A DNA stretch of 46,206 nt, taken from the IMG/VR virus record IMGVR_UViG_3300048930_001385; one strand, given 5' to 3'. The stretch is from an uncultured virus (IMG/VR IMGVR_UViG_3300048930_001385). Taxonomy: Duplodnaviria; Heunggongvirae; Uroviricota; Caudoviricetes. Positions 771-45,606 of the stretch are shown in pieces. Position 1 is the stretch's first letter, and each line of letters opens with the position of its first letter. The position numbers were made by a program, and so were the translations under genes. The notes beneath the pieces were generated by a model. That model had not been told where the DNA came from. It made no database searches and saw only the letters and a list, made by a program, of their open reading frames with translations.

Positions 771-813
771 TTATCGGCGCAGGGAGAGGATCCTTGAGGA
801 CACCTTGCTGGCC
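771..813 (-). promoter_or_regulatory. repeated element (palindrome + sigma28-like promoter)
   Basis: GGCCA-N6-TGTCC TCAA-N15-GCCGATAA-N7-ATG; upstream TAA abuts GGCC. Confidence 0.85.
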
Positions 814-1101
814 TTAAGGGAGAAGTTCCAATTCTGAATCATCCAAAAACCAGTCCCACTGACATCCAGTCTTTCCATCAATGTCCCACGGACGGTGCTC
901 CATACGGGTGGCCTCACTCGGGTCAGAAACATCGTAGCTGATCATGACAGGGTTATAGAGTAGGCGGGTGTATTCAATGTAGGGAATTAAAGGGGAGCGC
1001 CGGTCGCGGGTAGCCCGGGCCACGTCAATGACTACCCCTTCATTACCCGTTGCAACAACACGGACCTTATCGCCGATCTTGAATTGTGTATCACGCGTCA
1101 T
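814..1101 (-). CDS. hypothetical protein with KOW/SH3-like N-terminus
   Basis: FKIGDKVRVV motif; AGGAG SD upstream. Confidence 0.75.
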   Translation of the reverse strand: MTRDTQFKIGDKVRVVATGNEGVVIDVARATRDRRSPLIPYIEYTRLLYNPVMISYDVSDPSEATRMEHRPWDIDGKTGCQWDWFLDDSELELLP

Positions 1102-1115
1102 AATAGTTTTCTCCT

Positions 1116-1832
1116 TTAACCTATATAATGCTCGACGGCCCTTAGTCTTTCGCCATGCTCATCGTAGTAAATTTCATACTCACCATGCTCATCGTAGTAA
1201 ATTTCATACTCAATCTGACCATTGCGGTAGCGTTCAACGAGTACGGCGCCATCCGGATTAAAACGGATACCGTGCTGATACCATTCACTACGCTCCCATT
1301 CGCCGCAGGGAAGCGGCCTGCTTGTTCGCGCCGGACCATCTTCACGATGAAGAACACCATGTGTATACCATTCCTGGCTGGTAACTGGAGCGCCTTCTAC
1401 GTTGTATTGCTGAGCAAGGAAATAATCATACTTGATCCACGCGGGGCCATCCTCGCGGTGAAGGAATCCATGCTTACAGTACTTTTCCTCAATGACATTA
1501 CCTACCGGCGTTACAGTAATCCAGGCTGGTCCATCCTCGCGGTGCAGCTCGCCATTCTGAAGGTACTCGATAGTAAAGAGGCCGTTGGTTCCCCAAGACT
1601 GACGAAATACTCGTGCTGGACCGTTTTCGCGGTGCAACACACCCATCGTCCGCCACTCTGAGTAGTAAGCCTTGGGCACGCCTCCCCTGCCACCTTCTCC
1701 GCGCAAGAGGGCCGGCCCGTTCGTGCTGTGCAACACGTTGAGAACGGGGTCAATGACAGAGCGCTCGCCTCCCCCTGCGGGCCAATCGCTCGGGAACGGG
1801 TCGATGTAGTCAGCGACGTTGAGTCTATTCAT
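1116..1832 (-). CDS. HRE(D/N)GPA-repeat (MORN-like) protein
   Basis: Repeated LHREDGPA units; start moved to 1832 (7 nt after GCCGATAC). Confidence 0.8.
   Translation of the reverse strand: MNRLNVADYIDPFPSDWPAGGGERSVIDPVLNVLHSTNGPALLRGEGGRGGVPKAYYSEWRTMGVLHRENGPARVFRQSWGTNGLFTIEYLQNGELHREDGPAWITVTPVGNVIEEKYCKHGFLHREDGPAWIKYDYFLAQQYNVEGAPVTSQEWYTHGVLHREDGPARTSRPLPCGEWERSEWYQHGIRFNPDGAVLVERYRNGQIEYEIYYDEHGEYEIYYDEHGERLRAVEHYIG
1153..1212. repeat. perfect 30-bp tandem duplication (YEIYYDEHGE-type unit x2)
   Basis: ccatgctcatcgtagtaaatttcatactca occurs twice in tandem. Confidence 0.95.
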
Positions 1833-1839
1833 ATAGGGT

Positions 1840-1871
1840 GTATCGGCAATCATAAGTGTAGGGTTAGGCCA
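1840..1871 (-). promoter_or_regulatory. partial repeated element (proximal half-site only)
   Basis: TGGCCTAA...GCCGATAC-N7-ATG; overlaps upstream stop. Confidence 0.7.
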
Positions 1872-2262
1872 TTGCGTTAGCAGCAAGAAGCTGTTCTGCG
1901 CTTTCCAGCGCCCCGGCAAGGGCCAGGTCAATAACTGCCTGTACAGCTCGGACCCGTCCCTGACTCGAGGGAATCTCCACACGGTAGAAGGTCGCATCGT
2001 TCTGGTGAGTGATTGTGGCAGACCAAAGATCTTCGCTGCACCGAACTGTCTGAGGAGCGTCAACAAGGGTGACATGAATCATCGTGTTATCGTTACCGAA
2101 GCTATTATCCATCGTCGCAGCCTCTTCCGCAAACCGCTGCAGCCAGAACAGCATGTCTTCAAGTCGCTGTGCGCGAATACGGTCACTGATGTTGTCACTG
2201 GCTGAGGGTCCATGCGCAAACGCGCGGAGGGCCTGAGTAGTTCGCTCAATCTGGTCTGACAT
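1864..2262 (-). CDS. hypothetical protein
   Basis: MSDQIERT start with GAAAGGA SD, downstream of the element at 2292. Confidence 0.75.
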   Translation of the reverse strand: MSDQIERTTQALRAFAHGPSASDNISDRIRAQRLEDMLFWLQRFAEEAATMDNSFGNDNTMIHVTLVDAPQTVRCSEDLWSATITHQNDATFYRVEIPSSQGRVRAVQAVIDLALAGALESAEQLLAANAMA

Positions 2263-2291
2263 GGTAGTCCTTTCACTTGAAGATATCGGAT

Positions 2292-2335
2292 ATATCGGCG
2301 ACAAGTAACCTGGCCTAGAGGACAAACCACTGGCC
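2292..2335 (-). promoter_or_regulatory. repeated element
   Basis: GGCCA-N6-TGTCC...GCCGATAT. Confidence 0.85.
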
Positions 2336-2352
2336 GCATCGTTCACTAGCAC

Positions 2353-2712
2353 TTAATACTCATGATCGCTTTCTGGGTGATGGACACCACCCTGATTAGC
2401 AGCATCAGAATATGCAATCGTATAGGTAGGATAAGGACCATGACGCTCAATAATATCATCACCGTCATCTAACCAGCAAACATAATATCCAGGCCCCAGT
2501 TCCTCATCCTCCTGAATAGCGAACGGTTCACGGTCAGTCTTGTTATCGCGTGCAATGATGAGGGCGTCAAGGAGGATCTTATCCCTGTTGCTTGACAGAG
2601 CCTTGCCGATTCCCTCAAGTATCACCTCGTTGGGAATGTCTAGTCCCATTTCTTCTTTGAGACGCTGAAGGTCTTCCTTGGAAATGGGAAAAGGGATTTC
2701 ATAGTTCAGCAT
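2353..2712 (-). CDS. hypothetical protein (full-length paralog of 2893..3138)
   Basis: ORF; leaderless start. Confidence 0.8.
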   Translation of the reverse strand: MLNYEIPFPISKEDLQRLKEEMGLDIPNEVILEGIGKALSSNRDKILLDALIIARDNKTDREPFAIQEDEELGPGYYVCWLDDGDDIIERHGPYPTYTIAYSDAANQGGVHHPESDHEY

Positions 2713-2719
2713 AGTACTA

Positions 2720-2763
2720 GTATCGGCCTGTAGTGTGTGTGGGTTGAGGACAAGAACATGGCC
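2720..2763 (-). promoter_or_regulatory. repeated element
   Basis: GGCCA-N6-TGTCC TCAA-N16-GCCGATAC-N7-ATG. Confidence 0.85.
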
Positions 2764-2892: not shown

Positions 2893-3138
2893 TCAAAGAC
2901 AGCGAACATAATATCCAGCGCCCAGTTCCCCATTATCCTGAGTAGTGAACGATTCACGGTTAGTCTTGTTATCGCGTGCAATGATCAGGGCATCAAGGAG
3001 GATCCTGTCCCTGTTGTCCGACAGAGCCTTGCCTATTCCCGCAAGCGCCACCTCGTTGGGAATGTCTAGTCCCATTTCTTCTTTGAGACGCTGAAGGTCT
3101 TCCTTGGAAATGGAAAAGGGGATTTCGTACTTTAGCAT
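2893..3138 (-). pseudogene. C-terminally truncated copy of 2353..2712
   Basis: Near-identical first ~78 aa, then stop (81 vs 119 aa). Confidence 0.65.
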
Positions 3139-3145
3139 AGTAATA

Positions 3146-3189
3146 GTATCGGCATGTAGTGTGTATAGGTTGAGGACAAGAATACGGCC
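3146..3189 (-). promoter_or_regulatory. repeated element
   Basis: GGCCG-N6-TGTCC TCAA...GCCGATAC-N7-ATG. Confidence 0.85.
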
Positions 3190-4552: not shown

Positions 4553-4584
4553 GGTTGGCCTTTCATTGAGTGTCTACCCTATAT

Positions 4585-4626
4585 GTATCGGCAACTACGG
4601 CAGTCGCTGGAGGCCAAAGAGTGGCC
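4585..4626 (-). promoter_or_regulatory. repeated element (leadered transcript)
   Basis: GGCCA-N5-TGGCC...GCCGATAC; SD GAAAGG before ATG 4552. Confidence 0.85.
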
Positions 4627-6711: not shown

Positions 6712-7143
6712 TTACGCCTGCCCTGTATCACGTTGCTGCGTGTAATCGTGTCCATAGCGGATACCACAAGCGATCCGAGCTTCAAGAGCTTCGTCATCCG
6801 TCTTTTCTCGGGGGATGCGAGCAATGGCAGCATAGTTCTGCGCCTCTCGCCAGCGGCAAAAGATTGTAAGGAGGAAGGCGACAGTGAAGTATGCCAAGAT
6901 CATCCAGAAAATCACCGTTGTAACTGGGTGCTGAGTCATGATCAACCCGAAACCTGCCCCAAGGAACATAGGAAGTAGGAGCGAGATCATATCGCTGAGG
7001 AGGCCTTCACTGCTGAAGCGGTTGCGGATTGTCTGTGTAAGAGCATGCAGTGGGTTAAAAGCGCTATCAAAACGATCATGGCGCTTCGCCCAAACATCGG
7101 TTCGGTCCAAGTGATATTCTAGTCGCTGCTCGGGACTCTTCAT
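6712..7143 (-). CDS. membrane protein (2 TM)
   Basis: Start moved to MKSPEQ; two hydrophobic segments. Confidence 0.75.
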   Translation of the reverse strand: MKSPEQRLEYHLDRTDVWAKRHDRFDSAFNPLHALTQTIRNRFSSEGLLSDMISLLLPMFLGAGFGLIMTQHPVTTVIFWMILAYFTVAFLLTIFCRWREAQNYAAIARIPREKTDDEALEARIACGIRYGHDYTQQRDTGQA

Positions 7144-7150
7144 AATCGCT

Positions 7151-7194
7151 GTATCGGCGTCAAAGCGAGGGTTCTTAAGGCCAATGGTCTGGCC
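7151..7194 (-). promoter_or_regulatory. repeated element
   Basis: GGCCA-N6-TGGCC TTAA-N16-GCCGATAC-N7-ATG. Confidence 0.85.
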
Positions 7195-11051: not shown

Positions 11052-11984
11052 TCACTGCATCGGTACGAACGCATCTCCGATCAGCAGCCCGCCCTCACAA
11101 GCCGGATCCTTCCAGATTCCATTAGCGTCTACACGCTTAACGTTTCCGCTCGTCTGGACAATTCGTACGTTCAATCCGTCCTCATACAGGGCAATGGCAA
11201 CAGGCTCAATAAGATCTCGGCGGCCACTGGCAAAGATACAGATCCGCTTGTTAAACATAGAACTTGCAAGCTCCATTGCCTGCGCCGGGGTCAAGTAAGG
11301 GAATCGCTTTTCAACGATATCACAGAGATCGTCATAGCTGAAGCCATCCGCTGTGTCCTTTACCGCCAATGTTACTGCCTGATCGTTGGCACCATAGAAG
11401 GGCAATGCAACTGGCGGATTCTCGAGCCGCTTATCTTCGTTAAGGTAATGGAAAGCAGCGCCGATTACACAATCCTTCCAAGCTCCAGAGCGGCAGAAAT
11501 CAAGGAATTGCTTGATTTCCTCAGGGTCGTTGCTTGATCCGATAACGATGGAATTTTGCACCACTAGCTGGCGGGCGAGTCGCTTGTTCGTATCAGGGTC
11601 GTCACTCGTGAGCGGCCATTGATTAAAAAAGTCAATACAATCCTGACCGCCGAAGTCACCCTTCTTGGTCAAGAAGAGCTCGTAACAGTACCCTTGCTGA
11701 TAAGCCTGCTCGGCCTCATCAACCTCGTCCATGATCTCAGTGACCTCGCTACTAGCGAGCTGCAACTCACTGATGACCAGTTCTTTAACAGATTCTGGAG
11801 CGTCCCACATGGTCCCGGAATCGATAGCGTGTTCTACAGCCTGAAGCTGCATTTGCATGACCTGTACCTGCATCTGCAGGACAGGATCGTCATCTGAAAG
11901 TTTAAGGGCTTTCTCTAACGCGGTGAGATTGGCCTTAAGGCTATCTCGCATCTGCAGATAATAGGGGTCGGGTGTAGCGCTCAT
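11052..11984 (-). CDS. hypothetical protein, N-terminal coiled coil
   Basis: 310-aa ORF, leaderless start. Confidence 0.8.
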   Translation of the reverse strand: MSATPDPYYLQMRDSLKANLTALEKALKLSDDDPVLQMQVQVMQMQLQAVEHAIDSGTMWDAPESVKELVISELQLASSEVTEIMDEVDEAEQAYQQGYCYELFLTKKGDFGGQDCIDFFNQWPLTSDDPDTNKRLARQLVVQNSIVIGSSNDPEEIKQFLDFCRSGAWKDCVIGAAFHYLNEDKRLENPPVALPFYGANDQAVTLAVKDTADGFSYDDLCDIVEKRFPYLTPAQAMELASSMFNKRICIFASGRRDLIEPVAIALYEDGLNVRIVQTSGNVKRVDANGIWKDPACEGGLLIGDAFVPMQ

Positions 11985-11991
11985 GACCTGT

Positions 11992-12034
11992 CTATCGGCG
12001 AGAACCGGGCGAACTGTAGGCCAAGTGCGTGGCC
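11992..12034 (-). promoter_or_regulatory. repeated element
   Basis: GGCCA-N6-TGGCC...GCCGATAG-N7-ATG. Confidence 0.85.
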
Positions 12035-12620: not shown

Positions 12621-12630
12621 AGTATCTGTT

Positions 12631-12673
12631 GTATCGGCATACTCAGCAGCGGCTGCAGGCCTATTGGCTGGCC
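12631..12673 (-). promoter_or_regulatory. repeated element
   Basis: GGCCA-N6-AGGCC...GCCGATAC; upstream TAA abuts. Confidence 0.8.
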
Positions 12674-13814: not shown

Positions 13815-13820
13815 ACCCCG

Positions 13821-13848: not shown

Positions 13849-13928
13849 GTGCCCTAAACTCTGGGGTGGATTCACGGGATCTCAGAGATCGTGCCTGAAA
13901 AGAATATGGTCAGTTTAAGAGTCAATTG

Positions 13929-33845: not shown

Positions 33846-33852
33846 ACTAGTT

Positions 33853-33895
33853 CTATCGGTCATTATGAGCCATGCTTGAGGACAGTGCGGTGGCC
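33853..33895 (-). promoter_or_regulatory. repeated element
   Basis: GGCCA-N6-TGTCC TCAA-N15-ACCGATAG-N7-ATG. Confidence 0.85.
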
Positions 33896-34022: not shown

Positions 34023-34886
34023 TCAGGATACCTTCTCAGCGCGGGTCGTAGCAACCAATTCGGCACCCCTAGGCTGGTCGTAATCTTTGTCAAACCATGA
34101 ACACACATAGTGAACTGTTTCTACCCCATTCAGCTGGAAATACCGCCCCTGAGTTTGATCACGCCACGCGCGCCACCCGCCATGCCCATCAAAACGCGGG
34201 GCGCACTCGTGCGCGGGCTCATCGTCCGCACCCTTGTTGATAAACGGCTCACTGTCAACACAGTTGTAGCCATCAGCTGTCTTGACAAAGAACCAGCCCA
34301 CCTCGGGAGCATACATATCCTGAAGCACAGGATCAAAGGATCCGCGCCGAAAATAGAGAATTCCGTCGCCTTCCTTGATATTGCCATTGTCAACCTGCTT
34401 GATCTCTGCCTCAATCGCTGCCTGGATCCAAGTCTCTCGAAGTCTATTCCATTCATCCTTATGCTGCTCGTAAGCATTGGGCAGCCAATCGTTGCAGCTG
34501 TCCACAAGAGGTGCAATCAGGGTAAAAACGTGAGCTAAGTTACGATAACTAGGATTGTCAGAAGATGGGTTAGCGTTCCCAAACGACAGGAGTATCTTCT
34601 GGACCGAGCGGTCAGGTCGACGAACAGCTTCAATTGGTAGCCAGTCGGAGATAGAGTAGATATTACCTTCAAGGGCGACGTAAAGTCCCCACACCAGATC
34701 GAGCGGGTGGAGGGCTTCTTTATTACGAAATCCCAATAGAAAAGCTGTGTCAATACTATCGTCAGAATCACCCGAAAACGCTGAGATAACAACTTCGTAA
34801 TCCGTGAACTTGGCCTTGATCGATTCAAGATGTTCTTGATTAGTGGGCTTCGCCGCTTCCTTATCCTTATGCCAGAATGACTTCAT
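34023..34886 (-). CDS. hypothetical protein
   Basis: 287-aa ORF, leaderless start. Confidence 0.8.
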   Translation of the reverse strand: MKSFWHKDKEAAKPTNQEHLESIKAKFTDYEVVISAFSGDSDDSIDTAFLLGFRNKEALHPLDLVWGLYVALEGNIYSISDWLPIEAVRRPDRSVQKILLSFGNANPSSDNPSYRNLAHVFTLIAPLVDSCNDWLPNAYEQHKDEWNRLRETWIQAAIEAEIKQVDNGNIKEGDGILYFRRGSFDPVLQDMYAPEVGWFFVKTADGYNCVDSEPFINKGADDEPAHECAPRFDGHGGWRAWRDQTQGRYFQLNGVETVHYVCSWFDKDYDQPRGAELVATTRAEKVS

Positions 34887-34893
34887 ATAGACA

Positions 34894-34935
34894 ATATCGG
34901 CCCTTAGACTGTCACCTAAAGGACAAGTTGTGGCC
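34894..34935 (-). promoter_or_regulatory. repeated element
   Basis: GGCCA-N5-TGTCC...GCCGATAT-N7-ATG; upstream TAG shares the first G. Confidence 0.85.
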
Positions 34936-35735: not shown

Positions 35736-35765
35736 ACTCTTTTCCTCTCCGGGTGCGTACTACTA

Positions 35766-35809
35766 TTATCGGTGTATTCCCCTGTCTACCTAAGGCCAAG
35801 ATCATGGCC
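35766..35809 (-). promoter_or_regulatory. repeated element overlapping the rnz stop
   Basis: GGCCA-N6-TGGCC...ACCGATAA. Confidence 0.85.
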
Positions 35810-36722
35810 CACAATAGTAACCGTCCTCACCGATGACGACCTTGACGCTATCTCCGGCTACTGCACTTGCCTCAGTAAGGACATCATCCGGTGTATAGCG
35901 TGAGGATAAGTGATTGAGGACTAAACATACAGGTGTGCCAGCACTCGCGCCAAGCTTACCAGCGTCGCCAGCGGTCATGTGTCCGTTCTTCTCAGCCTTG
36001 TCCCGATCTTGTTCAAGATAAGTCGCCTCGCTAACAATCAGGCTGCATGAACTGGCCATTTTGGACAAACCCTCGTGCCAAGCCGTATCGCCAGTATACA
36101 ACCACCGTCGCCCTGGCTGCGGAGCAAGCAAGTAGTCTTGGCCGCGTAGAACCCTTCCATCGTCTAGGGTCAAATCTTCGCCCCGGGCGAGAATTTTCAT
36201 ATCTGGGCCGAAAGTGGCCCCGTCAGCAAGAGCTTTACCAGCATTCAATCGCGGAGGCTGGACATCCTCTTCAAAGACAATACTTAGAGCAGGGCTTGTG
36301 TGAACCGCAGCGTAGAAAAGCGCAGTCCACTCCGAACCCAGACGCAGACTGTCACCTGGCTCAATGGTCTCTAGCGCGTAAAGGCTAGGGTGAGTCATTG
36401 TTGCGTCCAAATAGGCACGAAGCAAAGGCTCATTAGTAGGCAGACAATAAATAGGTAGCGGCTCGCACTCGCTGTGTCCAGCACGGGTTTTAACGATACT
36501 TGCAAGCCCGAGGTAGTGATCCGCGTGGTAGTGTGTCAGGATTACTGCATCAAGCGAATTCGCGCCTAAGTTGGCCCACTGCAGTAGGCCCTTCTGTGCG
36601 CCTTCACCAGCATCAAGCAGGATGTTCTTACCCCCGATCTTAACCAAGTTGGCAGAGCAAGAGCGCGAACGGGTCGGCTTGGTTGCCGCCGTACCGAGTA
36701 ATGTTATGCTAATCTGCTCCAC
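35802..36722 (-). CDS. rnz: ribonuclease Z (tRNase Z)
   Basis: LGT, DAGEG, THYHADH, exosite-like GP insert, TGDT, EAT, H, NHLSSRY. Confidence 0.9.
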   Translation of the reverse strand: MEQISITLLGTAATKPTRSRSCSANLVKIGGKNILLDAGEGAQKGLLQWANLGANSLDAVILTHYHADHYLGLASIVKTRAGHSECEPLPIYCLPTNEPLLRAYLDATMTHPSLYALETIEPGDSLRLGSEWTALFYAAVHTSPALSIVFEEDVQPPRLNAGKALADGATFGPDMKILARGEDLTLDDGRVLRGQDYLLAPQPGRRWLYTGDTAWHEGLSKMASSCSLIVSEATYLEQDRDKAEKNGHMTAGDAGKLGASAGTPVCLVLNHLSSRYTPDDVLTEASAVAGDSVKVVIGEDGYYCGP

Positions 36723-36729
36723 GTTAGAG

Positions 36730-36773
36730 TTATCGGCAGAGCAAACAATTCTCTGTAGGCCAATCTATTGGCC
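36730..36773 (-). promoter_or_regulatory. repeated element overlapping the upstream stop
   Basis: GGCCA-N6-TGGCC...GCCGATAA-N7-GTG. Confidence 0.85.
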
Positions 36774-38906
36774 ATCAGCTTTAGCTTTCAACTCATCTTG
36801 CTTACGGATGGCGTGATGCGCAATAGTGATGATATGATTTTTGCTATTGACACTGGTCCCTCCCTCAAGGGCAATGTAGGCAAGATTTAGAGCTGGATAT
36901 TCTTGGAAAAGATCCTTGAAAAAGTTCTCGTCTCGTCCAGCAGAGATCTTAATGTCATACTGCTTTGCCAGCAATGCAAGTGAACGCAGCTCTTTAGACT
37001 TACCGCGTGGACAGGCTGGGAATGCTGCGCGCAGAGCCTTCTCGTAAGCTGTGGATCCAACGCTGTCACGAACTAGCAGATCTCCGAGTGTGTCGCGAAC
37101 CTTGTTCGGGAGGATCCTGCCAGTCAGGTATCGCAATGACTGCTGATCGAGAGCGATGACCTCGCGATTAACGATATTCTTGACTACTTCTTCCACGGGT
37201 GTCGCCACGCCCTCAACCTGCTCAAGACGGCTGAGAAAGCTCTCGGCAAGCCTGTGGCTTTGGATAAGTACGAGCTGTGATCCCTTCGGCAATCGTTCGT
37301 AAACGCTAGTGGTGGGCTTGTTATTACCATGCTGGTAGACAATCCGACCTCCGACCTCCACCATTTCTCTAACATTCCTATCCACGATTGTTCCAGGTTC
37401 AATCATCACTCGGTAACGCAGGTCAAGATCCTTGGCCTTTTGGCCGGTAGGAACCTTCGCTCGGCGAAGTAGCGCCTTGAGAGCATTATATTCAATTTCC
37501 GCACACTGAAGCGCGTTGATAACCGGGTCACCCTTGGTCTCGTGCTTGAAAACAAGGTGGTAGCTGATAATTCGCTCGTTGCCTTCATGACCAGCTAACT
37601 TAGCAAGCACCATACGGCCATAATGATCATTTTCTACTCGTGCAAGTACCCCCCGGTCTAGAGTGTATTCTTCAGGTGTCTGTGAGACATGGCTAAGGGG
37701 CGGCTGGTCTAGATCATCGCGATCAGCATCGACAACGACAAAGTGGGGCATGCTCCCACGGCGGTAAGAATCAGTCCAGAACTTGATCTTGTTGAACGAT
37801 CCACTATAGTAAGATCGTCGGTATGAGGCAAGATTGATGGCTTCGTCCGGACAGATCGGCAGAGGCAGACCCTTCCAATTCAGCTCAGTCAGTATTTGTG
37901 TTAGAGCGTAATTCTGGATATAGTATCGGATTGCTTCGGCCTCGCTCACACAAGCATCAATTTTAGCCTGAATATGCGCCTTAAGATCATTCATGCATCC
38001 ATCTAGCGCTGCCTGAACGGCGGCGATAGTGCGCTTGCTCTCTCGTAGCCCCTCCCGACTTGGAGCAAGGTCTACGGTCCCAATCGGGAGGTTAATAACT
38101 ACTGTGTGAAGATTAGTGACTGCGCTCCAACCAGCGTCGACGGTCACGTGCTTACGCATTGATAAGGATAAGTCGTAGATAACTTCACCAGTGCGTAGGA
38201 AGATGCTACCGTGATGATGCATATGACGACGGGGCGCGCGATCCGCTAGGGTTAGCTGCTCACTAATAATGGTCGCATCTTTGTAAAGGTAAGGGATATC
38301 GACACCGACACAGTTATACAGTGCTGGGTCCCAATGACTAAAGAGCTCCTTGGCCTCTCGCTCATAGGCAGGATGATTTTCGGCAATGGGAATATTAACA
38401 GTGACACCGTTCGGCGCGTCAACAGTCTTTTGGCCGAGCACCAACATGTCAGCATCACCCTCATCGTTGCGGGTGAAGAGAGCTGTTGTCTGTATGCCGT
38501 CCTTAATGCCGACAACAGTATACTGGTCAGCTACCGCAAAAGCGCTCTTGGCCCCGATCCCGAAGCCGCCAACCTGATCATTGCTATCCCGCTTTGTTGA
38601 AGCCCCATACTTGCGGTAGACTTCCGTCAGCCCCTCAAGATCAAGCCCAAGCCCCTGATCCTTAATTTTCAGGTTCGGAGCCAGAGCGGTGGGGAGATGG
38701 ATATCAATAGGCTTATCCACGCCGGCCGCGCGATGGCTATCCAGAGCATTGGTTGCGTACTCACGGATAACAGCCTTGATCGGGTTCTCGTACATATCAC
38801 TCATCATATCCATGATGTGACGCATGTGATCCTGATCAATCTCCATGCGGTAGCGATCATGCTCACGAGAGCTCTTCGTAGTGATTTCAGCGGTTGCAAT
38901 CTTCAT
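36765..38906 (-). CDS. rIIA-like GHKL ATPase protein, copy A
   Basis: YENP..AVIREYATNALDSH, DQGLGL, YGASTKRDSNDQVGGFGIGAKS, PSREGL; start moved to MKIAT. Confidence 0.85.
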   Translation of the reverse strand: MKIATAEITTKSSREHDRYRMEIDQDHMRHIMDMMSDMYENPIKAVIREYATNALDSHRAAGVDKPIDIHLPTALAPNLKIKDQGLGLDLEGLTEVYRKYGASTKRDSNDQVGGFGIGAKSAFAVADQYTVVGIKDGIQTTALFTRNDEGDADMLVLGQKTVDAPNGVTVNIPIAENHPAYEREAKELFSHWDPALYNCVGVDIPYLYKDATIISEQLTLADRAPRRHMHHHGSIFLRTGEVIYDLSLSMRKHVTVDAGWSAVTNLHTVVINLPIGTVDLAPSREGLRESKRTIAAVQAALDGCMNDLKAHIQAKIDACVSEAEAIRYYIQNYALTQILTELNWKGLPLPICPDEAINLASYRRSYYSGSFNKIKFWTDSYRRGSMPHFVVVDADRDDLDQPPLSHVSQTPEEYTLDRGVLARVENDHYGRMVLAKLAGHEGNERIISYHLVFKHETKGDPVINALQCAEIEYNALKALLRRAKVPTGQKAKDLDLRYRVMIEPGTIVDRNVREMVEVGGRIVYQHGNNKPTTSVYERLPKGSQLVLIQSHRLAESFLSRLEQVEGVATPVEEVVKNIVNREVIALDQQSLRYLTGRILPNKVRDTLGDLLVRDSVGSTAYEKALRAAFPACPRGKSKELRSLALLAKQYDIKISAGRDENFFKDLFQEYPALNLAYIALEGGTSVNSKNHIITIAHHAIRKQDELKAKADGQ

Positions 38907-38913
38907 GCAGTTT

Positions 38914-38957
38914 ATATCGGGAGCTGTGACAGGGTTCATGAGGCCAGCCTGGTGGCC
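38914..38957 (-). promoter_or_regulatory. repeated element
   Basis: GGCCA-N6-TGGCC...CCCGATAT-N7-ATG. Confidence 0.85.
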
Positions 38958-38983: not shown

Positions 38984-39877
38984 CTACTTTGCTGTGTTCA
39001 TTGACTGATACTGCTCACGGCTCAGGCCAAAACTACGGGCCATGACGGTGAGCGCGTCATCGCCCCATGCTCGCGGGTAGATGAGCCCATACCGGCGTCG
39101 GGTGCCGTCACGGTCTAGTGAAGCGTTATCGCAGAAGATAATCCGTGCTCGGTTCTGACGAATACGGGGCCACGCCCATTCCCGACCGTAAACGTTAAGC
39201 TCTCTCGGAAAATCGCAGAGCCGGAGGGTGTGACCAGGATTACCAGGATCAGGCTGCTCGTCAACGAGCGCGAATCGATCCTCGTACTGCTCCCAACCCC
39301 CGTTCTCCTCGAACCAGACTCGACGCTGCTCCGCGTTCTTAGCATTGATAGCATCCTCGATAGTCCAAGAGTAGAAGGCGGGATCAACCTTGACATCACG
39401 ACAGAAATAAACCTCAGACCACAATGCCCCGTTCTTATGCCATTCTCGGTACGCTGGCTCACCCGAGGGCGGGTCATGCAGCTGACCGTTCTGATAATAT
39501 TCCTCACACCACAGCACACCGTTCTCACGCCATTCTCGCCATGCTGGCTCACCCGAGGGCGGGTCATGCTGCTGACCATTCTGGTGATAAGCCTCACACC
39601 ATAATCGCCCGTTCTCATGCCATGATCGGTACGCTGGCTCACCCGAGGGCGGGTCATGCTGCTGACCATTCTGGTGATAAGCCTCACACCATAATCGCCC
39701 GTTCTCATGCCATGATCGGTACGCTGGCTCACCCGAGGGATGATCGTGCACTAGGCCATTCAGCTTGTAGATTAGCTTTAACCGTTTACGCTGAACAGTC
39801 CAACCGGCCTGGATATCTTCTTCAGTTAGCTGATAGTAGTCAGCGGGGTCATAGACTGTTGACTGGACGGTATCCAT
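38984..39877 (-). CDS. 30-aa repeat/DUF6745-like protein, paralog 2 (4 repeats)
   Basis: HDPPSGEPA repeats; conserved C-terminus; start moved to MDTVQ. Confidence 0.85.
   Translation of the reverse strand: MDTVQSTVYDPADYYQLTEEDIQAGWTVQRKRLKLIYKLNGLVHDHPSGEPAYRSWHENGRLWCEAYHQNGQQHDPPSGEPAYRSWHENGRLWCEAYHQNGQQHDPPSGEPAWREWRENGVLWCEEYYQNGQLHDPPSGEPAYREWHKNGALWSEVYFCRDVKVDPAFYSWTIEDAINAKNAEQRRVWFEENGGWEQYEDRFALVDEQPDPGNPGHTLRLCDFPRELNVYGREWAWPRIRQNRARIIFCDNASLDRDGTRRRYGLIYPRAWGDDALTVMARSFGLSREQYQSMNTAK
39543..39739. repeat. perfect 90-bp tandem duplication inside paralog 2
   Basis: 39543-39632 identical to 39633-39722, identity continuing to 39739. Confidence 0.92.
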
Positions 39878-39884
39878 GAGGAAT

Positions 39885-39926
39885 CTATCGGCAACTACAT
39901 GAGACACTAAAGGTCACGGTATGGCC
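39885..39926 (-). promoter_or_regulatory. repeated element
   Basis: GGCCA-N5-TGACC...GCCGATAG-N7-ATG. Confidence 0.85.
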
Positions 39927-39928
39927 TA

Positions 39929-42094
39929 CTACTTCTCTGTAGCAATTGCTGCTCCCTGAGCGCGGATAGCTGCCTGTGCTGCCGAGAAGATCTTCCACTT
40001 CCCATGTGTCTTTGAGTCACAGTTTGCTAGAGCCAGATACGCCAACTCAAGTGCGGGATACTCCTTGAAAAAATCTTTAAACAGATTCTCATCGGATGCC
40101 CGGATAAGCTTGATATCGTACTGCTTGGCCAAGAGTGCAAGTGAGCGAAGCTGCTTTGACTTACCACGAGGACAAGCCGGGAAAGCCTTGCGAAGACTTT
40201 TCTCATACTCAGGCGTGCCAACATAGTCCCTAACAAGCAGCTTATCCAGAGTGTCACGGACGGCATTTGGCAACACCCGCCCACGTAGGTAAAGGAGACT
40301 CTGCTCGTCCAAGGCAGCGACCTCACGAAGAACAATATTCTTAACAGCATCCTCAACAGGTCGTGCATTTCCACCGACCTTCTCCAGTCGTTCAAGGAAG
40401 CTCTCTGCTTGCCGGTGTCCGGGAATCAATACCAGCTGTGAGCCTTTCGGCAGGCGACTGTAAACACTAGTGGTCGGCCTGTTATTCCCGTGCTGGTAAA
40501 AGATCTTACCACCCTTGGCAACCATCTCAGTCACGTTACGCATGACCTCATGGCCCTCGCCGATCATTACTCGGTAAGGCAGATCAATATTCTTCACCCG
40601 ACCGGTTGCCGTGCGGCTAGTGGCCTTGCGCAGGCTGTTCTGCAGGGAGAGATAATCTACTCGCGCACAAGTAAGGGCCTGGATAACAGGATCATTCTCG
40701 GCCTGATGCGCGAAGGCAAGATAGTAGCCATCTCCGTGGCTATTAACTTCATCATGCTCCGGATCAAGGCGACAGATGACATCACGACCGTGCCAACTAG
40801 AGCAAGCGCGAATGAACTCGCCCTTGGTCAGAGTGTACTCTTCAGCGCTCAATTCCTTATGCTCAAGAGGAGGCTGCTCAAGATCATCAATATCCGCTTC
40901 GACGAGGATAAATTTAACGGCGTGAGGGCGCGAGTAGATTCCACACCAGTAAACCTCTGGATTATGCAATGCGCTGCGAGCTCGCTCGTCAACTGGAATA
41001 CTAGGGTCGGGATAAACAGGAAACTCTTTGCCCCTGTAAGTTGGCTTGTCACCGATGATCTGCATGATGTTAAACTTCTTGATGTAACAAAGGATTGCCT
41101 CGGCTTCGGTATCGGCCTCGTCTAGCTGCTTGAGAAGATACAGCTTCACATCCTCAAGGCCCTGATCCAGCGCGGCCTGAACAGCTTTGATCGTGCGCTT
41201 GCTCTCACGCAGGCCCTCGCGGCTCGGAGCAAGGTCAACACTGCCAATCGGCAGATTGATTACAACGGGATTCTGTCGGCATACAATATGCCAAGAAGAA
41301 TCATACTCAAGATTCTTCAGCAGCGACGGCGAAAGTGGATAAGGAGTCTCGCCATTACGGAGGATAATCCCCGACTGTCCGCGCGAGTGGAGTGATCGGT
41401 TGTGGTGGGTACGGTTAGCATAGTTTGACTCCAGCAAGGTAACCGTGTCACTAACGTGGATACAGTTCTGGTAAATATAGGGAATCTCTACACCGGGACA
41501 GTCGTAGGTGCTCGGATCCCAGTGCGAGAAAATTTCGGCTGCCTCACGGACATAGGCAGGGTGATTATCGGCAATGGGAATGTTAACCGTAACACCGTTA
41601 GGCTCGTCAACATTCTTCTGGCCGAGCACGCGCATATCAGCGTCACCATCATCATTACGAGTGAACAGTACACTCGTCCTGACACCGTTCTTGACGCCGA
41701 TAACTGTGTACTGGTCAGCCACGGTAAATGCGCTCTTCGCCCCGATGCCGAAGCCACCGACCTGATCGTTGCTATCGCGCTTCGTTGATGCTCCATACTT
41801 GCGGTAGACATTGATAAGACCGTCAAGGTCAAGGCCAAGGCCCCAGTCCTGAATTTTGAGATTCGGCTTCAACGCCGTGGGCAGAGTAATCCGTACCGGA
41901 TCGGTATTGCCAGCGGCGCGGTGGCTATCAAGAGCGTTGGTGGAATACTCGCGGATCACGGCCTTGACCGGATTCTCGTACATGTCGCTCATCATGTCCA
42001 TGATGTGACGCATATGGTCATCATCGATCTCCATGCGGTAGCGATCATGCTCGCGAGAGCTCTTCGTAGTGATTTCAGCGGTTGCGATCTTCAT
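39929..42094 (-). CDS. rIIA-like GHKL ATPase protein, copy B
   Basis: Same motifs as copy A; start moved to MKIAT. Confidence 0.85.
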   Translation of the reverse strand: MKIATAEITTKSSREHDRYRMEIDDDHMRHIMDMMSDMYENPVKAVIREYSTNALDSHRAAGNTDPVRITLPTALKPNLKIQDWGLGLDLDGLINVYRKYGASTKRDSNDQVGGFGIGAKSAFTVADQYTVIGVKNGVRTSVLFTRNDDGDADMRVLGQKNVDEPNGVTVNIPIADNHPAYVREAAEIFSHWDPSTYDCPGVEIPYIYQNCIHVSDTVTLLESNYANRTHHNRSLHSRGQSGIILRNGETPYPLSPSLLKNLEYDSSWHIVCRQNPVVINLPIGSVDLAPSREGLRESKRTIKAVQAALDQGLEDVKLYLLKQLDEADTEAEAILCYIKKFNIMQIIGDKPTYRGKEFPVYPDPSIPVDERARSALHNPEVYWCGIYSRPHAVKFILVEADIDDLEQPPLEHKELSAEEYTLTKGEFIRACSSWHGRDVICRLDPEHDEVNSHGDGYYLAFAHQAENDPVIQALTCARVDYLSLQNSLRKATSRTATGRVKNIDLPYRVMIGEGHEVMRNVTEMVAKGGKIFYQHGNNRPTTSVYSRLPKGSQLVLIPGHRQAESFLERLEKVGGNARPVEDAVKNIVLREVAALDEQSLLYLRGRVLPNAVRDTLDKLLVRDYVGTPEYEKSLRKAFPACPRGKSKQLRSLALLAKQYDIKLIRASDENLFKDFFKEYPALELAYLALANCDSKTHGKWKIFSAAQAAIRAQGAAIATEK

Positions 42095-42101
42095 GCGGTT
42101 T

Positions 42102-42145
42102 GTATCGGGAGCTATGGTCGGGTCCATGAGGCCAAGCTGGTGGCC
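42102..42145 (-). promoter_or_regulatory. repeated element
   Basis: GGCCA-N6-TGGCC...CCCGATAC-N7-ATG. Confidence 0.85.
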
Positions 42146-42171: not shown

Positions 42172-42978
42172 CTACTTCGCTGTCGTCATACCCTGGTACT
42201 GTTCCCTGCTAAGACCAAAACTACGGGCCATAACCGTGAGCGCGTCATCGCCCCATGAACGAGGGTAAATCAGACCATATCGGCGACGGGTGCCGTCACG
42301 GTCTAGTGAAGCATTATCGCAGAAGATAATCCGTGCTCTGTTCTGACGAATACGGGGCCACGCCCATCCTCGACCGTAGACATTAAATTCTCTCGGAAAA
42401 TCGCAGAGCCGGAGGGTGTGGCCGGGGTTCCCTGGATCGGGCTGCTCGTCCACGAGGATAAACTTATCCTCATACTGCGCCCAGCCGCCGTTCTCTTCAA
42501 ACCAGACTCGGCGCTGTTCCGTGTTTCTGGTCTTGATAGCGTCCTCTATCGACCACGAGTAGAAGTCGGGGTCAACCCGTACATCACGACAGTAATATGC
42601 CTCATACTCTAGTACCCCGTCCCCATCCCATATTCGCCATGCTGGCTCGCCCGAGGCTGGGTTGTGCACTTGCCCATTATGGTAATACCATTCATACCAT
42701 AATCTCCCGTTTTCATGCCATTCTCGATATGCTGGTTCACCCGAGAGTGGGTTATGCCGCTGGCCATTCTGGTAATACACCTCACACCATAACCTGCCGT
42801 TCTCATACCATTCTCGATATGCTGGCTCGCCCGAGGGTGGATCATGCCGCTGACCGTTCAGCTTGTAGACTAGCCTTGTCCGCTCTAGCTCAACAGTCCA
42901 TCCCACCCGAATGTCCTCGTCCGTTAACTGGTAATAGTCGCCGGGGGCGAAAACTATTGACTGGATTCGTGTGCTCAT
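42172..42978 (-). CDS. 30-aa repeat/DUF6745-like protein, paralog 3
   Basis: Three repeats plus conserved C-terminus. Confidence 0.85.
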   Translation of the reverse strand: MSTRIQSIVFAPGDYYQLTDEDIRVGWTVELERTRLVYKLNGQRHDPPSGEPAYREWYENGRLWCEVYYQNGQRHNPLSGEPAYREWHENGRLWYEWYYHNGQVHNPASGEPAWRIWDGDGVLEYEAYYCRDVRVDPDFYSWSIEDAIKTRNTEQRRVWFEENGGWAQYEDKFILVDEQPDPGNPGHTLRLCDFPREFNVYGRGWAWPRIRQNRARIIFCDNASLDRDGTRRRYGLIYPRSWGDDALTVMARSFGLSREQYQGMTTAK

Positions 42979-42985
42979 ATGCCTG

Positions 42986-43029
42986 TTATCGGCAGTAGTT
43001 TCAGTATATGTGAGGCCAATCTCCTGGCC
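42986..43029 (-). promoter_or_regulatory. repeated element
   Basis: GGCCA-N6-TGGCC...GCCGATAA-N7-ATG. Confidence 0.85.
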
Positions 43030-43897: not shown

Positions 43898-44019
43898 AGA
43901 AAACAAGACGCCATACCCGATAACACCTATAATCAGGGTTGCGGACGGGGGTGCTGATCCTAAATCAAGCGGAGCCTGATGCAGAGCCTAGGGTGGCCAT
44001 GTGCCGCCCTTTACTCTGC

Positions 44020-44319
44020 TTATGCCCTCGAGCCAGCTGCGCCTCCGGTGCCGCCCATGATCACGGAGATTCCAATCAGGTAGCCGAAGTTGTACCAGTT
44101 ACCGTTATTCTTGACCTCATAGATATTGTAGTCAGCGCCGAAGAGTGAGGCAATAAAAGCGAACGGTGCGCTGAAGCCGTCCCATAGTCCTCCGAAGAAG
44201 CCGGAGGCTCCGCTCTCAACCATTGGATTCGGCCCGCCACACCCCGCCAAAAGCAGGGAGGCTCCGACAACGAGAAAGGATAGCAGAATGACCTTCTTGA
44301 GTGGTGCAGTCATCCTCAT
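44020..44319 (-). CDS. putative lipoprotein/membrane protein
   Basis: LLAG/C lipobox; GFFGGLWDG...IYEV.NNG.WYNFGY. Confidence 0.8.
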   Translation of the reverse strand: MRMTAPLKKVILLSFLVVGASLLLAGCGGPNPMVESGASGFFGGLWDGFSAPFAFIASLFGADYNIYEVKNNGNWYNFGYLIGISVIMGGTGGAAGSRA

Positions 44320-44708
44320 GCCTCCCCGCGCATCGCCAGCGCGCCCTGTAGCTTAGCAAAGAGCCGAATAACCATAGTCGCCTCCCGGCCTGAGCTGGCA
44401 ATCATGTTTGCGGCCATTACCTGCGCATCCCCAAGATGCATGAGCGCTTCATTGCGGTCGTACTCACCAAGGTACGCAGCGCGAGCGCGGTAATATGCGT
44501 GGGCGATCCGATCAGTATTATCATTGCGATGATAGTCAAGGCCCTCCTTGCAGATCAGCTCCACGTGCTCGGTGATTTCGTCGACCGTCCACGTCCAGTA
44601 AGAACGTTCACAGAGGGCGATGACAGCCTGCTCAGCCTGAACGAGCCACTTATCAATACACTCGGACTGAGCAGGAGTATAACCTGGGTAACATGCGGTT
44701 GTGTTCAT
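44316..44708 (-). CDS. hypothetical protein
   Basis: Leaderless start; ATGA-coupled to the next gene. Confidence 0.75.
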   Translation of the reverse strand: MNTTACYPGYTPAQSECIDKWLVQAEQAVIALCERSYWTWTVDEITEHVELICKEGLDYHRNDNTDRIAHAYYRARAAYLGEYDRNEALMHLGDAQVMAANMIASSGREATMVIRLFAKLQGALAMRGEA

Positions 44709-44715
44709 ACGATAT

Positions 44716-44759
44716 CTATCGGCAAAGCTTGTGGGGCTCTAGAGGACAAATACGTGGCC
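44716..44759 (-). promoter_or_regulatory. repeated element
   Basis: GGCCA-N6-TGTCC...GCCGATAG-N7-ATG; upstream TAG shares the first G. Confidence 0.85.
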
Positions 44760-44953
44760 TAGGAGTACTTGTTGAGACGGTCAGCGATCTTGCCCGCTCG
44801 CCAGAGGGCGATAGAAGTGGGAAGGTTGAGATATTCGGCAACGTCTACTCCCCGCTCCCGGTCTACAACTACGACACACTGCTTGGTGTAGTCAGCGAGA
44901 ATCGATCTGACGCGCAGGTTCTTGACCTCTACTGCGTAACGAGGTTTATCCAT
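44759..44953 (-). CDS. small hypothetical protein
   Basis: MDKPRY start overlapping the upstream gene end. Confidence 0.65.
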   Translation of the reverse strand: MDKPRYAVEVKNLRVRSILADYTKQCVVVVDRERGVDVAEYLNLPTSIALWRAGKIADRLNKYS

Positions 44954-45380
44954 TCCTGGCCTCAACCTTTCTCTGCCAGCCCGCAGCATCGTCCCAGCGC
45001 TGAATCAGTGGAAACTGGTCATAGCCATACTGTGAGGCGGTGTAATCAATAGAGTAAAGAAAGTTATCAATAAGAGCAAAAGTTGTTGTATGAAAAGGCG
45101 CGCCGGTGAGCTCGCGATCATCATAGCCAAGCTCTTCTGGGGAGTTAGCTCCGAACTCGGCCCACTCTTCGTTCGGGCTTGCCCAGGGCTCGTCAGAGAG
45201 CCAGGCATGGATACCATGCTCTTCAAGATACTCAGCAAGGGCCTCGGAGACGCCGTGGCAGTAGCCGTTGTCGGCGGTGCAACGTTGCCACTCCCTGACA
45301 GGACGGTCCTCTTCCATGGGAGAGACATATACTGTCTCGTCCTTGAAGCTTTCAATCACCTGCCAGGCGTCCACTGTCAA
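44946..45380 (-). CDS. hypothetical protein, possible Cys-His-Asp (papain/transglutaminase-like) fold
   Basis: GYC...S, H, IDYTASQY motifs. Confidence 0.65.
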   Translation of the reverse strand: MTVDAWQVIESFKDETVYVSPMEEDRPVREWQRCTADNGYCHGVSEALAEYLEEHGIHAWLSDEPWASPNEEWAEFGANSPEELGYDDRELTGAPFHTTTFALIDNFLYSIDYTASQYGYDQFPLIQRWDDAAGWQRKVEARNG

Positions 45381-45556
45381 CAGTCCTCGTGCTCGCTTGG
45401 GATGTCGCCGACCTCGGCGAGGATAGTATCCATCATGTCGATGAGGACGTCGTGCTCATCATCATTGGAGCCGTGCTCAATGCACACCGCCTCCCTTGCG
45501 GTTTGAAGCCAGGCGATTGCGTCGGCACGATTGAGGATGATGGTGTCTTTGCTCAT
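45377..45556 (-). CDS. small acidic hypothetical protein
   Basis: MSKDT start 7 nt after GCCGATAT. Confidence 0.7.
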   Translation of the reverse strand: MSKDTIILNRADAIAWLQTAREAVCIEHGSNDDEHDVLIDMMDTILAEVGDIPSEHEDC

Positions 45557-45563
45557 ACTCATA

Positions 45564-45606
45564 ATATCGGCCCAAGGCCAGCTAGCTTGAGGCCAAAATT
45601 CTGGCC
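45564..45606 (-). promoter_or_regulatory. repeated element
   Basis: GGCCA-N6-TGGCC TCAA-N15-GCCGATAT-N7-ATG; upstream TAA abuts. Confidence 0.85.

Follow-up and report, generated by a model that had tools for sequence, protein, structure and literature searches.

A repeated, palindrome-linked element resembling sigma-28/WhiG promoters, with many predicted leaderless starts, in a probable huge phage of an actinobacterium

Introduction

The 46,206-nt stretch of viral DNA analysed here (the window), from the uncultured Caudoviricetes record IMGVR_UViG_3300048930_001385 of IMG/VR, carries many copies of an element of about 50 bp that joins a GGCCA-type palindrome to two promoter-like boxes. The locus thus raises the question of which polymerase reads the element, where transcription would start from it, and what the palindrome is for. 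The initial annotation of the window had counted 37 full and two partial copies on the minus strand, and had read them as a regulon driven by a sigma-28-like factor together with a dedicated palindrome-binding protein. The IF3, CysK and RIIA proteins of the window are recorded on a contig of 552,685 bp, of which the window makes up about 8%; the searches of this genome for the factors described below cover the window.

Results

An element between genes on the coding strand

The window has 37 occurrences of the heptamer GCCGATA, of which 29 are on the minus and 8 on the plus strand, as against 6.42 +/- 2.11 in shuffled sequences with a maximum of 11. The palindrome GGCCA-N5/6-TGNCC gives 58 matches where 0.86 are expected, perfect palindromes being counted on both strands. 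When both are joined as GGCCA-N5/6-TGNCC-T-N18-20-CCGATA, 28 exact matches are found, all on the minus strand, versus 0.00 in 100 dinucleotide shuffles. At one mismatch per block there are 37 full copies, spanning 763-813 to 45556-45606 and all on the minus strand, which is the coding strand; two partial copies, near 1832-1882 and 13812-13863, have the -10 box and a -35-like box with a degenerate or missing palindrome. The earlier count is thereby reproduced in number and strand. With the same tolerance, the plus strand yields six poor matches and no exact match to the joined pattern.

The copies are placed between genes. In 31 of the 37, the palindrome starts -43 to +60 nt from the stop codon of the nearest upstream long open reading frame (ORF), and for nine of them this distance is -1 to +2 nt. 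As had been claimed, the element precedes both protein genes and the two tRNA genes of the window, tRNA-Glu and tRNA-Leu each following a copy. Palindromes without a -10 box are limited to three extra copies, all inside a 39-bp tandem array at 33879-34018. GGCC sites outside the element are not avoided (257 versus 233 expected overall, with 60 inside palindromes). We conclude that the element is a real, highly non-random promoter class.

Its consensus reads GGCCA-N5/6-tTG(G/T)CC-T-Y-W-A-G-N14/15-G-CCGATA. Each position of the left arm GGCCA is kept in 36-37 of the 37 copies, and the right arm is TGGCC in 23, TGTCC in 11, TGACC in two and AGGCC in one. The loop between them (6 nt in 27 copies, 5 nt in nine and 4 nt in one) is unconserved except for a T at its last place in 27/37. 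The block after the right arm consists of T (37/37), a pyrimidine (33), A or T (29), A (28) and G (34). The unconserved spacer from TYAA to GCCGATA measures 15 bp in 20 copies and 16 bp in the other 17; the loop and spacer lengths are paired as (6,16) in 17 copies, (6,15) in 10, (5,15) in nine and (4,15) in one, with no case of (5,16). By position, the -10 box is C in 35, C in 37, G in 37, A in 37, T in 35 and A in 35 copies, preceded by G in 26. The motif blocks and spacing of the earlier consensus hold with two amendments, namely that the base following GCCGATA is unconserved and that the block after the palindrome is T-Y-W-A-G. The proposal that the palindrome abuts the -35 box is borne out: right arm and block are contiguous, with zero gap, in 37/37 copies, and the half-site centres lie 10-11 bp apart, one helical turn, as expected for a dimer site.

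Predicted transcription starts and start codons

Counted from the first C of CCGATA, position 15, the ninth base after the hexamer, is a purine in all 37 copies (A in 31, G in six), and position 14 is a pyrimidine in 33. A pyrimidine/purine pair at -1/+1 is the usual preference of bacterial RNA polymerase. With position 15 as the predicted +1, the A of CGATA is placed at -11. Read from sequence alone, this same base is the first base of a start codon in 24 of the 37 copies (ATG in 23, GTG in one), and in 23 of these 24 at least 49 codons are opened. For comparison, 3 of 82 CGA[TA]A sites on the other strand have an ATG at the same offset, versus 25 of 120 such sites on the coding strand. The RIIA-like protein P0241, called independently in the database, has 713 amino acids, the same length as the leaderless ORF from the promoter at 38906..38957.

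In the 13 copies without such a start codon, the predicted +1 is followed either by a 3-47-nt leader, in most cases with a purine-rich ribosome site, or by a tRNA: tRNA-Glu (19549-19473) begins 4 nt past the predicted +1 and tRNA-Leu (28057-27983) begins 55 nt past it. Given the fixed distance from CCGATA to ATG and a start codon at the predicted +1, most units would give leaderless mRNAs. This leaderless architecture is the main addition to the earlier account.

Cellular leaderless genes have a -10 box of the housekeeping TANNNT type. The leaderless mRNAs of Actinomycetota and Deinococcota, and that of lambda cI from PRM, resemble the present units in that a short, constant interval separates the -10 box from an ATG that is itself +1, and the start codon here is AUG in 23 of the 24 copies, the strong 5' signal that leaderless translation needs (PMC4611024). 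Unlike the cellular cases, the -10 box here is of an alternative-sigma type, and the leaderless 24/37 is a share of a whole promoter class.

Resemblance to sigma-28 and WhiG promoters

Two boxes, an unconserved spacer of 15-16 bp and a start 8 nt past the -10 box form the layout of a sigma-70-family holoenzyme. The published sigma-28 consensus is TAAAGTTT-N11-GCCGATAA (PMC7286023), also described as a -35 box TAAA and a -10 box GCCGATAA, which WhiG uses as well (PMC8325347). For actinobacteria, the consensus of WhiG2 is given as T(A/C)AA-N16-GCCGATAA and that of WhiG1 as CTCA-N16-17-GCCGAACT, the central CGA being most conserved (10.64898/2026.01.14.699351). Written as TYAA-N15/16-GCCGATA, the element matches the WhiG2 form, with 7 of the 8 positions of GCCGATAA and the N16 spacing in agreement, though with an exact TCAA in only 11/37 copies. 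Its -10 box is of the GCCGATAA type with an invariant CGA, and the 15-16 bp between its boxes suit sigma-28.

Compared with the promoters of FliA, SigD and WhiG1/WhiG2 as a group, the element is thus alike in its (G)CCGATA box, in a T- and A-rich -35-like box that resembles T(A/C)AA 15-16 bp upstream, in a predicted start about 8 nt past the -10 box and in a probably actinobacterial host. It is unlike them in that about 39 copies stand in 45 kb of phage DNA, versus a small cellular motility, pilus or sporulation regulon; in that the -35 box is CC-T-Y-W-A-G, fused to a palindrome, and the last A of GCCGATAA is lost; in that most copies would start at the start codon; and in that the sigma itself was not found in the window.

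Three other assignments were set aside. Sigma-70-type promoters are not enriched (26 versus 19.7 and 25 versus 18.2 expected from shuffles, 40 kb scanned). Neither a sigma-54 site in the palindrome, suggested by the GG/GC spacing, nor a T7-like promoter, suggested by 'ACTATAGGG' in two copies, fits the box sequences and start positions.

The palindrome as a probable dimer site

The palindrome consists of a pair of 5-bp inverted repeats spanning 15-16 bp. Relative to the predicted +1, its right arm ends at -35/-36 and its centre lies at -42 to -43.5; with that start, the dyad falls beside the -35 region where class II activators and Mor/C bind (near -41.5 to -43.5). The dimer site of the Mor/C-dependent middle and late promoters of phage Mu is closely similar, with two 5-bp inverted repeats in 16 bp, centred at -43.5 just upstream of -35 (PMC4390567). 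The Mu promoters differ in using sigma-70, in having no -35 hexamer and in being five in all; here the -10 box is sigma-28-like, the -35-like block is conserved, so that the element is not a promoter without a usable -35, the copies are many, and no Mor-family protein was found in the window. Because of the position of the palindrome, activation is favoured over repression as the sign of the bound protein.

The initial annotation knew of no description of this architecture for a phage. That view stands for the combination only, as the palindrome geometry has its close precedent in Mu. Our literature searches (on the -10 sequence, huge-phage sigmas and leaderless mRNAs, WhiG, and jumbo-phage motifs) turned up no account of such an element in a phage, and the excerpts of PMC7162821, on huge phages, mention IF1/IF3 and a sigma-70 of phages but no promoters of this type. 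Each part belongs to a known kind; their combination, their copy number and their setting in a ~553-kb probable actinophage are new.

Other carriers of the element

In IMG/VR, a strict pattern matched no locus, a looser pattern matched one single, chance-like locus, and a search for RIIA-based loci found none. Comparison with the phage collection by DNA gave three weak 100-nt matches only. The cultured large actinophages Tomas, Racecar, Dorin, Trina and Faust are without the element: the palindrome occurs 0-6 times per genome, near control counts, and GCCGATA occurs 7-23 times per genome on both strands. GTDB species genomes contain 41 loci, a single match each and none multi-copy, where by our own estimate about 26 are expected by chance; in this set, therefore, the element is no genome-wide cellular motif.

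The metagenome scan gave at least 122 loci, most of them single and chance-like among the matches listed. Also among the matches listed are five short contigs (L004, L029, L031, L067 and L071) that have 2-6 copies with the same arms, block, spacing and position-15 purine, and six more (L034, L041, L050, L069, L080 and L115) that look alike to them. Most copies on these motif-sharing contigs have short leaders. No sigma was found among 51 ORFs of these contigs by Pfam, and no WhiG-like match was found there by phmmer. In the phage collection, the matches to a WhiG query are sporulation-type sigmas of Bacillus phages, unannotated faecal contigs and one Microcystis phage.

Many leadered copies, both in the window (4577-4590 and 8075-8090) and on L004, L031 and L071, have a common start region, CCGATA-(c/a)atataGG-GCAAGG or -GTA(G/A)AC, and the -35/-10 spacers can be identical within one contig, as in the three L004 copies. 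The shared start region and identical spacers suggest that promoters were duplicated recently and that a 5' leader element may be conserved.

The proposed explanation and its alternatives

The best explanation, to which we give a probability of about 0.6, is that this gene block of a ~553-kb phage, probably of an actinobacterium, has the element as its standard promoter, read by a sigma-28/WhiG-type holoenzyme with a dimer at the palindrome; from the sequence we infer the host, the start site, the sigma factor, and the binding protein with its sign. A bacterial-type RNA polymerase holoenzyme would take (G)CCGATA, at -15/-14 to -9, as its -10 box and CC-T-Y-W-A-G, 15-16 bp upstream, as its -35 box. 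Its sigma would be a host WhiG-type factor or, as seems likelier, a relative that the phage encodes in another part of its genome. Transcription would start at the ninth base after CCGATA, which in about two-thirds of the units would be the A (once the G) of the start codon, so that the mRNA would have neither a leader nor a Shine-Dalgarno site; the remaining transcripts would begin with a 3-47-nt leader, as a rule containing a purine-rich ribosome site, or would run into a tRNA. At every copy, the palindrome would be the site of a dimeric DNA-binding protein acting on the polymerase, most likely a Mor/C-like activator. The sigma-28/WhiG-type and dimer-site assignments are both supported by the geometry of the element and by the published consensus sequences.

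In the T4 middle promoters (MotA/AsiA), in SPO1 (gp28 and gp33/34) and with the sigmas of Bacillus phages, one promoter type precedes many co-oriented genes and is read through a phage-specified factor. The single conserved promoter type before many co-oriented genes in the window would likewise imply a phage-specified factor, and sigma genes of Bacillus phages are among the WhiG matches named above. The box sequences differ, and none of these classes is known to us to combine a sigma-28-type -10 box, a palindrome and leaderless starts.

Several observations weigh against the proposed explanation. No sigma-70-family, Mor-family or helix-turn-helix domain was found by Pfam among 67 window ORFs, none of the same domains by an NCBIfam rescan of the 46 ORFs without an informative Pfam match, and no WhiG-like ORF by phmmer with two WhiG-family queries among 373 six-frame window ORFs (best E 0.049). 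The search for an encoded sigma or dimeric regulator, suggested with the initial annotation, therefore brought up no sigma or DNA-binding protein within the window; of the regulon and palindrome-binder first claimed, what stands is the fit of the boxes and spacing to the published consensus and the dimer-type geometry of a palindrome that abuts the -35 block. The exact WhiG2-type -35 box (TCAA) is present in only 11 of the 37 copies, with TTAA in five and TAAA in none, and the final A of GCCGATAA is unconserved (A in 8/37). Loop and spacer lengths co-vary rather than compensate. Among the five sampled genomes with the closest CysK (see below), two give a clear WhiG match (G258 and G044), two a weaker one (G269 and G070), and the fifth (G289) has no WhiG match at E <= 1e-40. 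The host WhiG2 is normally kept inactive by RsiG and cyclic di-GMP (the 2026 WhiG preprint), which makes heavy reliance on the host factor awkward. By blastp, the 243 ORFs of the motif-sharing contigs and the 373 window ORFs have no protein in common, so that it is the element by which those contigs would be kin to the window. Finally, -10 boxes of the CGA type could just as well be recognised by an ECF-like (extracytoplasmic function) sigma or by another divergent one.

That the promoter is read by some other phage-supplied factor, be it an ECF-like or other sigma or a phage RNA polymerase, with a merely convergent likeness to sigma-28, is unlikely, though it fares best among the alternatives. 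The departure of CC-T-Y-W-A-G from TAAA and the lost last A of GCCGATAA would both be accounted for, the phage collection has no WhiG-like sigma from any cultured actinophage at E <= 1e-5, and jumbo phages with their own polymerases reportedly also have a short motif before many genes. However, the two-box layout, the spacer, the A at -11 and the start 8 nt past the -10 box are those of a sigma-70-family holoenzyme, and seven of the eight -10 positions and the spacing agree with WhiG2. Single-subunit polymerase promoters, moreover, are contiguous blocks.

We consider it rather doubtful that the palindrome is a repressor operator, serving temporal shut-off or lysogeny-type control of a promoter that works without it. 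In the actinophage phiC31, conserved inverted repeats (CIRs) near early promoters reportedly bind its repressor, and here too a repeated inverted repeat lies near a repeated unusual promoter; the CIRs are repressor sites of a temperate 41-kb phage and differ in sequence and position. Cooperative repression would go well with the intergenic array at 33879-34018, where four palindromes follow one another every 39 bp, and a conserved -35-like block is present, unlike in Mor/C-dependent promoters (PMC4390567). Against this, a site that ends at -35/-36 and is centred at about -43 leaves both boxes free, which is the classic position of a class II activator, and the zero-gap join to the -35 block suggests direct contact with the polymerase.

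A role of the palindrome as an RNA or single-stranded DNA hairpin, acting as terminator or 3'-end stabiliser of the upstream gene, is very improbable. The nine palindromes that start within -1 to +2 nt of the upstream stop codon would fit it, as would the 22 perfect copies, which fold with their flanks at a mean of -11.0 kcal/mol. Yet the 15 imperfect copies (departures in the right arm in 14 and in the left arm in two, one having both) contain no compensating change and fold at a mean of -5.5 kcal/mol, and the stem of only 5 bp is followed by T-Y-W-A-G with no U tract. Terminator-like sites are not above shuffles (21 versus 15.4 and 18 versus 15.3, 40 kb scanned), and the scans list only one of the 37 palindromes (15085-15100). 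A terminator would not need a right arm fused to the -35 block at a fixed phase, and no free-standing palindrome is present at the three convergent gene ends (near 23010, 32453 and 14860).

Scarcely credible, lastly, is the idea that CCGATA-N8-ATG is a translation signal on longer transcripts, for which the 8 nt to the ATG would be within the Shine-Dalgarno spacing range: CCGATA is not complementary to the anti-Shine-Dalgarno sequence, 13 copies, two of them heading tRNAs, have no start codon at that distance and so mark it as a promoter element rather than a ribosome site, the leadered copies have ordinary purine-rich sites further down, and the purine and pyrimidine at positions 15 and 14 are features of a start site.

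Gene content and probable host

The genes of the window include two RIIA-like and four MORN-repeat genes, two RNA ligases, an HD-polynucleotide kinase, NUDIX, guanylate kinase and initiation factor 3 (IF3) genes, CysK with a hexapeptide transferase, a collagen-like protein, an LPXTG-anchored protein and a T5orf172 gene. Rfam finds the two tRNAs only. That the source is a phage we infer, since the window has no virion gene.

The CysK protein shares 70% identity with proteins from Phycicoccus, Pedococcus, Knoellia and Allobranchiibius (Micrococcales). Its gene, within 20321-21913 (-) and at 70% to Intrasporangiaceae/Dermacoccaceae, adjoins the gene of the hexapeptide (CysE-like) transferase; the two look like a recently acquired cysteine-synthesis pair and are the best host clue. 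The best RIIA matches in the phage collection are from large Arthrobacter, Streptomyces and Rhodococcus phages, at about 33% identity. At 23010-24924 (-), the collagen-repeat protein (414 amino acids) is followed by the protein with the LPXTG cell-wall anchor; that a phage encodes a sortase substrate speaks for a host that is Gram-positive. The source is thus probably a huge phage of an actinobacterium of the Micrococcales. WhiG-family sigmas above the family cut-off are present in 160 of 301 sampled genomes of the class, or in 157 of 298 when three unpublished genomes (G023, G028 and G035) are left out.

The stretch 36765-43846 (-) is a cassette in which the two RIIA-like genes (61% mutual identity) are interleaved with MORN-repeat genes; the latter have 90-bp internal tandem repeats at 39407-39739 and 42639-42859, and two further RIIA-like paralogues lie elsewhere on the 552,685-bp contig. 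The RNA ligases (4635-5315 and 15955-17031, both on the minus strand), the HD/polynucleotide kinase (21940-23028, one of the few plus-strand genes) and the two tRNAs look like a tRNA-repair set. IF3 (25371-25868, minus strand) is full length with both domains (E 3e-30 and 8e-22). Its best named relatives, at about 50% identity, are from Kiritimatiellia and Rhodobacteraceae, not actinobacteria, and its gene lies inside a stretch without element copies, 20.1-26.8 kb.

The individual copies are listed in Table 1. At 2474-3302, a 426-bp tandem duplication (87% matches) contains promoter and small leaderless gene twice (promoters 2763 and 3189). At 13966-15100, the 15100 promoter points into a plus-strand gene of 204 amino acids (function unknown) and a T5orf172/GIY-YIG-like gene; this promoter could have been orphaned by insertion of a mobile endonuclease cassette, or could give an antisense transcript.

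Table 1. Copies of the element from the motif scan, all on the minus strand. Palindromes are written as left arm-loop length (nt)-right arm; units called leaderless are those whose start codon begins at the predicted +1.
Coordinates	Palindrome	-35 block	Spacer (bp)	-10 box	Downstream unit and remarks
45556..45606	GGCCA-6-TGGCC	TCAAG	15	CCGATA	leaderless ATG, 59-codon ORF
44708..44759	GGCCA-6-TGTCC	TCTAG	16	CCGATA	leaderless ATG, 130 codons
43846..43897	GGTCA-6-TGGCC	TCAAG	16	CCGATG	2 mismatches; leaderless ATG, 267 codons, MORN-repeat protein
42978..43029	GGCCA-6-TGGCC	TCACA	16	CCGATA	leaderless ATG, 268 codons, MORN-repeat protein
42094..42145	GGCCA-6-TGGCC	TCATG	16	CCGATA	leaderless ATG, 721 codons, RIIA-like protein
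39877..39926	GGCCA-5-TGACC	TTTAG	15	CCGATA	leaderless ATG, 297 codons, MORN-repeat protein
38906..38957	GGCCA-6-TGGCC	TCATG	16	CCGATA	leaderless ATG, 713 codons, RIIA-like protein
36722..36773	GGCCA-6-TGGCC	TACAG	16	CCGATA	leaderless GTG, 306 codons, metallo-beta-lactamase-fold hydrolase
35758..35809	GGCCA-6-TGGCC	TTAGG	16	CCGATA	23-nt purine-rich leader, 82-codon gene, then guanylate kinase
34886..34935	GGCCA-5-TGTCC	TTTAG	15	CCGATA	leaderless ATG, 287 codons
33879..34018					intergenic tandem array, 39 bp x 3.6 copies; GGCCACCGCACTGTCC per unit; -35/-10 after last unit only
33845..33895	GGCCA-6-TGTCC	TCAAG	15	CCGATA	leaderless ATG, 77 codons; last member of 39-bp palindrome array
31443..31492	GGCCA-5-TGGCC	TACTG	15	CCGATG	7-nt leader, 256-codon MORN-repeat gene
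30569..30620	GGCCA-6-TGGCC	TCAAG	16	ACGATA	leaderless ATG, 156 codons
28709..28759	GGCCA-6-TGTCC	TTGAG	15	CCGATA	leaderless ATG, 161 codons
28112..28163	GGCCA-6-TGTCC	TTAAG	16	CCGATA	tRNA-Leu(taa) 28057-27983
26843..26894	GGCCA-6-TGGCC	TCTTG	16	CCGATA	16-nt leader with AAAGGAG, 81-codon gene
20006..20055	GGCCA-5-TGGCC	TCTAG	15	CCGATA	33-nt leader, 116-codon gene
19553..19602	GGCCA-5-TGGCC	TTAAG	15	CCGATA	tRNA-Glu(ttc) 19549-19473, then 121-codon gene
19007..19058	GGCCA-6-TGGCC	TCTCG	16	CCGAAA	27-nt leader, 194-codon gene
18359..18409	GGCCA-6-TGACC	TCAAG	15	CCGATA	47-nt leader, 137-codon gene
17031..17080	GGCCA-5-TGGCC	TTTAG	15	CCGATA	leaderless ATG, 358 codons, RNA ligase
15050..15100	GGCCA-6-TGGCC	TCTTG	15	CCGATA	ATG at predicted +1, 3 codons only; faces two plus-strand genes 13966-14858
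13812..13863		TTAAG	16	CCGATA	partial, no palindrome; ATG 7 nt on, in frame with ORF 13353-13841
12623..12673	GGCCA-6-AGGCC	TGCAG	15	CCGATA	3-nt leader, 193-codon TraX-family gene
11984..12034	GGCCA-6-TGGCC	TACAG	15	CCGATA	leaderless ATG, 310 codons
10325..10375	GGCCA-6-TGGCC	TCGTG	15	CCGATA	leaderless ATG, 62 codons
10063..10112	GGCCA-5-TGGCC	TTAAG	15	CCGAAA	leaderless ATG, 173 codons
9427..9475	GGCCA-4-TGGCC	TCAAG	15	CCGATA	sole 4-nt loop; leaderless ATG, 199 codons
8655..8705	GGCCA-6-TGTCC	TCAAG	15	CCGATA	leaderless ATG, 110 codons
8075..8124	GGCCA-5-TGGCC	TTGAG	15	CCGATA	21-nt leader, 244-codon YkuD L,D-transpeptidase gene
7143..7194	GGCCA-6-TGGCC	TTAAG	16	CCGATA	leaderless ATG, 143 codons
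6619..6670	GGCCA-6-TGGCC	TCAAG	16	GCGATA	leaderless ATG, 394 codons
5335..5386	GGCCA-6-TGTCC	TTAAG	16	CCGATA	20-nt leader, 226-codon RNA ligase gene, TTG start
4577..4626	GGCCA-5-TGGCC	TCCAG	15	CCGATA	25-nt leader, 415-codon DUF11 protein gene
3138..3189	GGCCG-6-TGTCC	TCAAC	16	CCGATA	leaderless ATG, 81 codons; in 426-bp tandem duplication with 2712..2763 unit
2712..2763	GGCCA-6-TGTCC	TCAAC	16	CCGATA	leaderless ATG, 119 codons
2284..2335	GGCCA-6-TGTCC	TCTAG	16	CCGATA	uncertain start (GTG 8 nt on, 65 codons)
1832..1882	right half only (ATGGCC)	TAACC		CCGATA	partial; CCGATA-N8-ATG in frame with ORF 1116-2075
763..813	GGCCA-6-TGTCC	TCAAG	15	CCGATA	leaderless ATG, 49 codons

Discussion

The window gives sequence-level evidence on the host (Actinomycetota) of a ~553-kb phage, and the element gives a precise, testable map of about 39 predicted start sites, together with the prediction that a sigma factor and a palindrome-binding dimer are encoded on the contig. 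As a compact part of 50 bp, it could serve as an orthogonal promoter in actinobacteria.

Since IF3 antagonises leaderless translation in E. coli (PMC4611024), the role of the phage IF3 comes into question. A wider picture can be drawn, which we hold to be quite doubtful: a phage WhiG-type sigma that escapes RsiG and cyclic di-GMP would, with a Mor-like dimer at every palindrome, fire hundreds of one-gene leaderless units, and the phage IF3 would be adapted to favour these over host mRNAs, or not to oppose them, so that promoter type and translation mode together would mark messages as those of the phage.

If the proposed explanation is true, this would be a phage promoter class built on sigma-28/WhiG specificity, which is known from cellular motility and sporulation regulons, and a whole promoter class of a huge phage would yield leaderless mRNAs.

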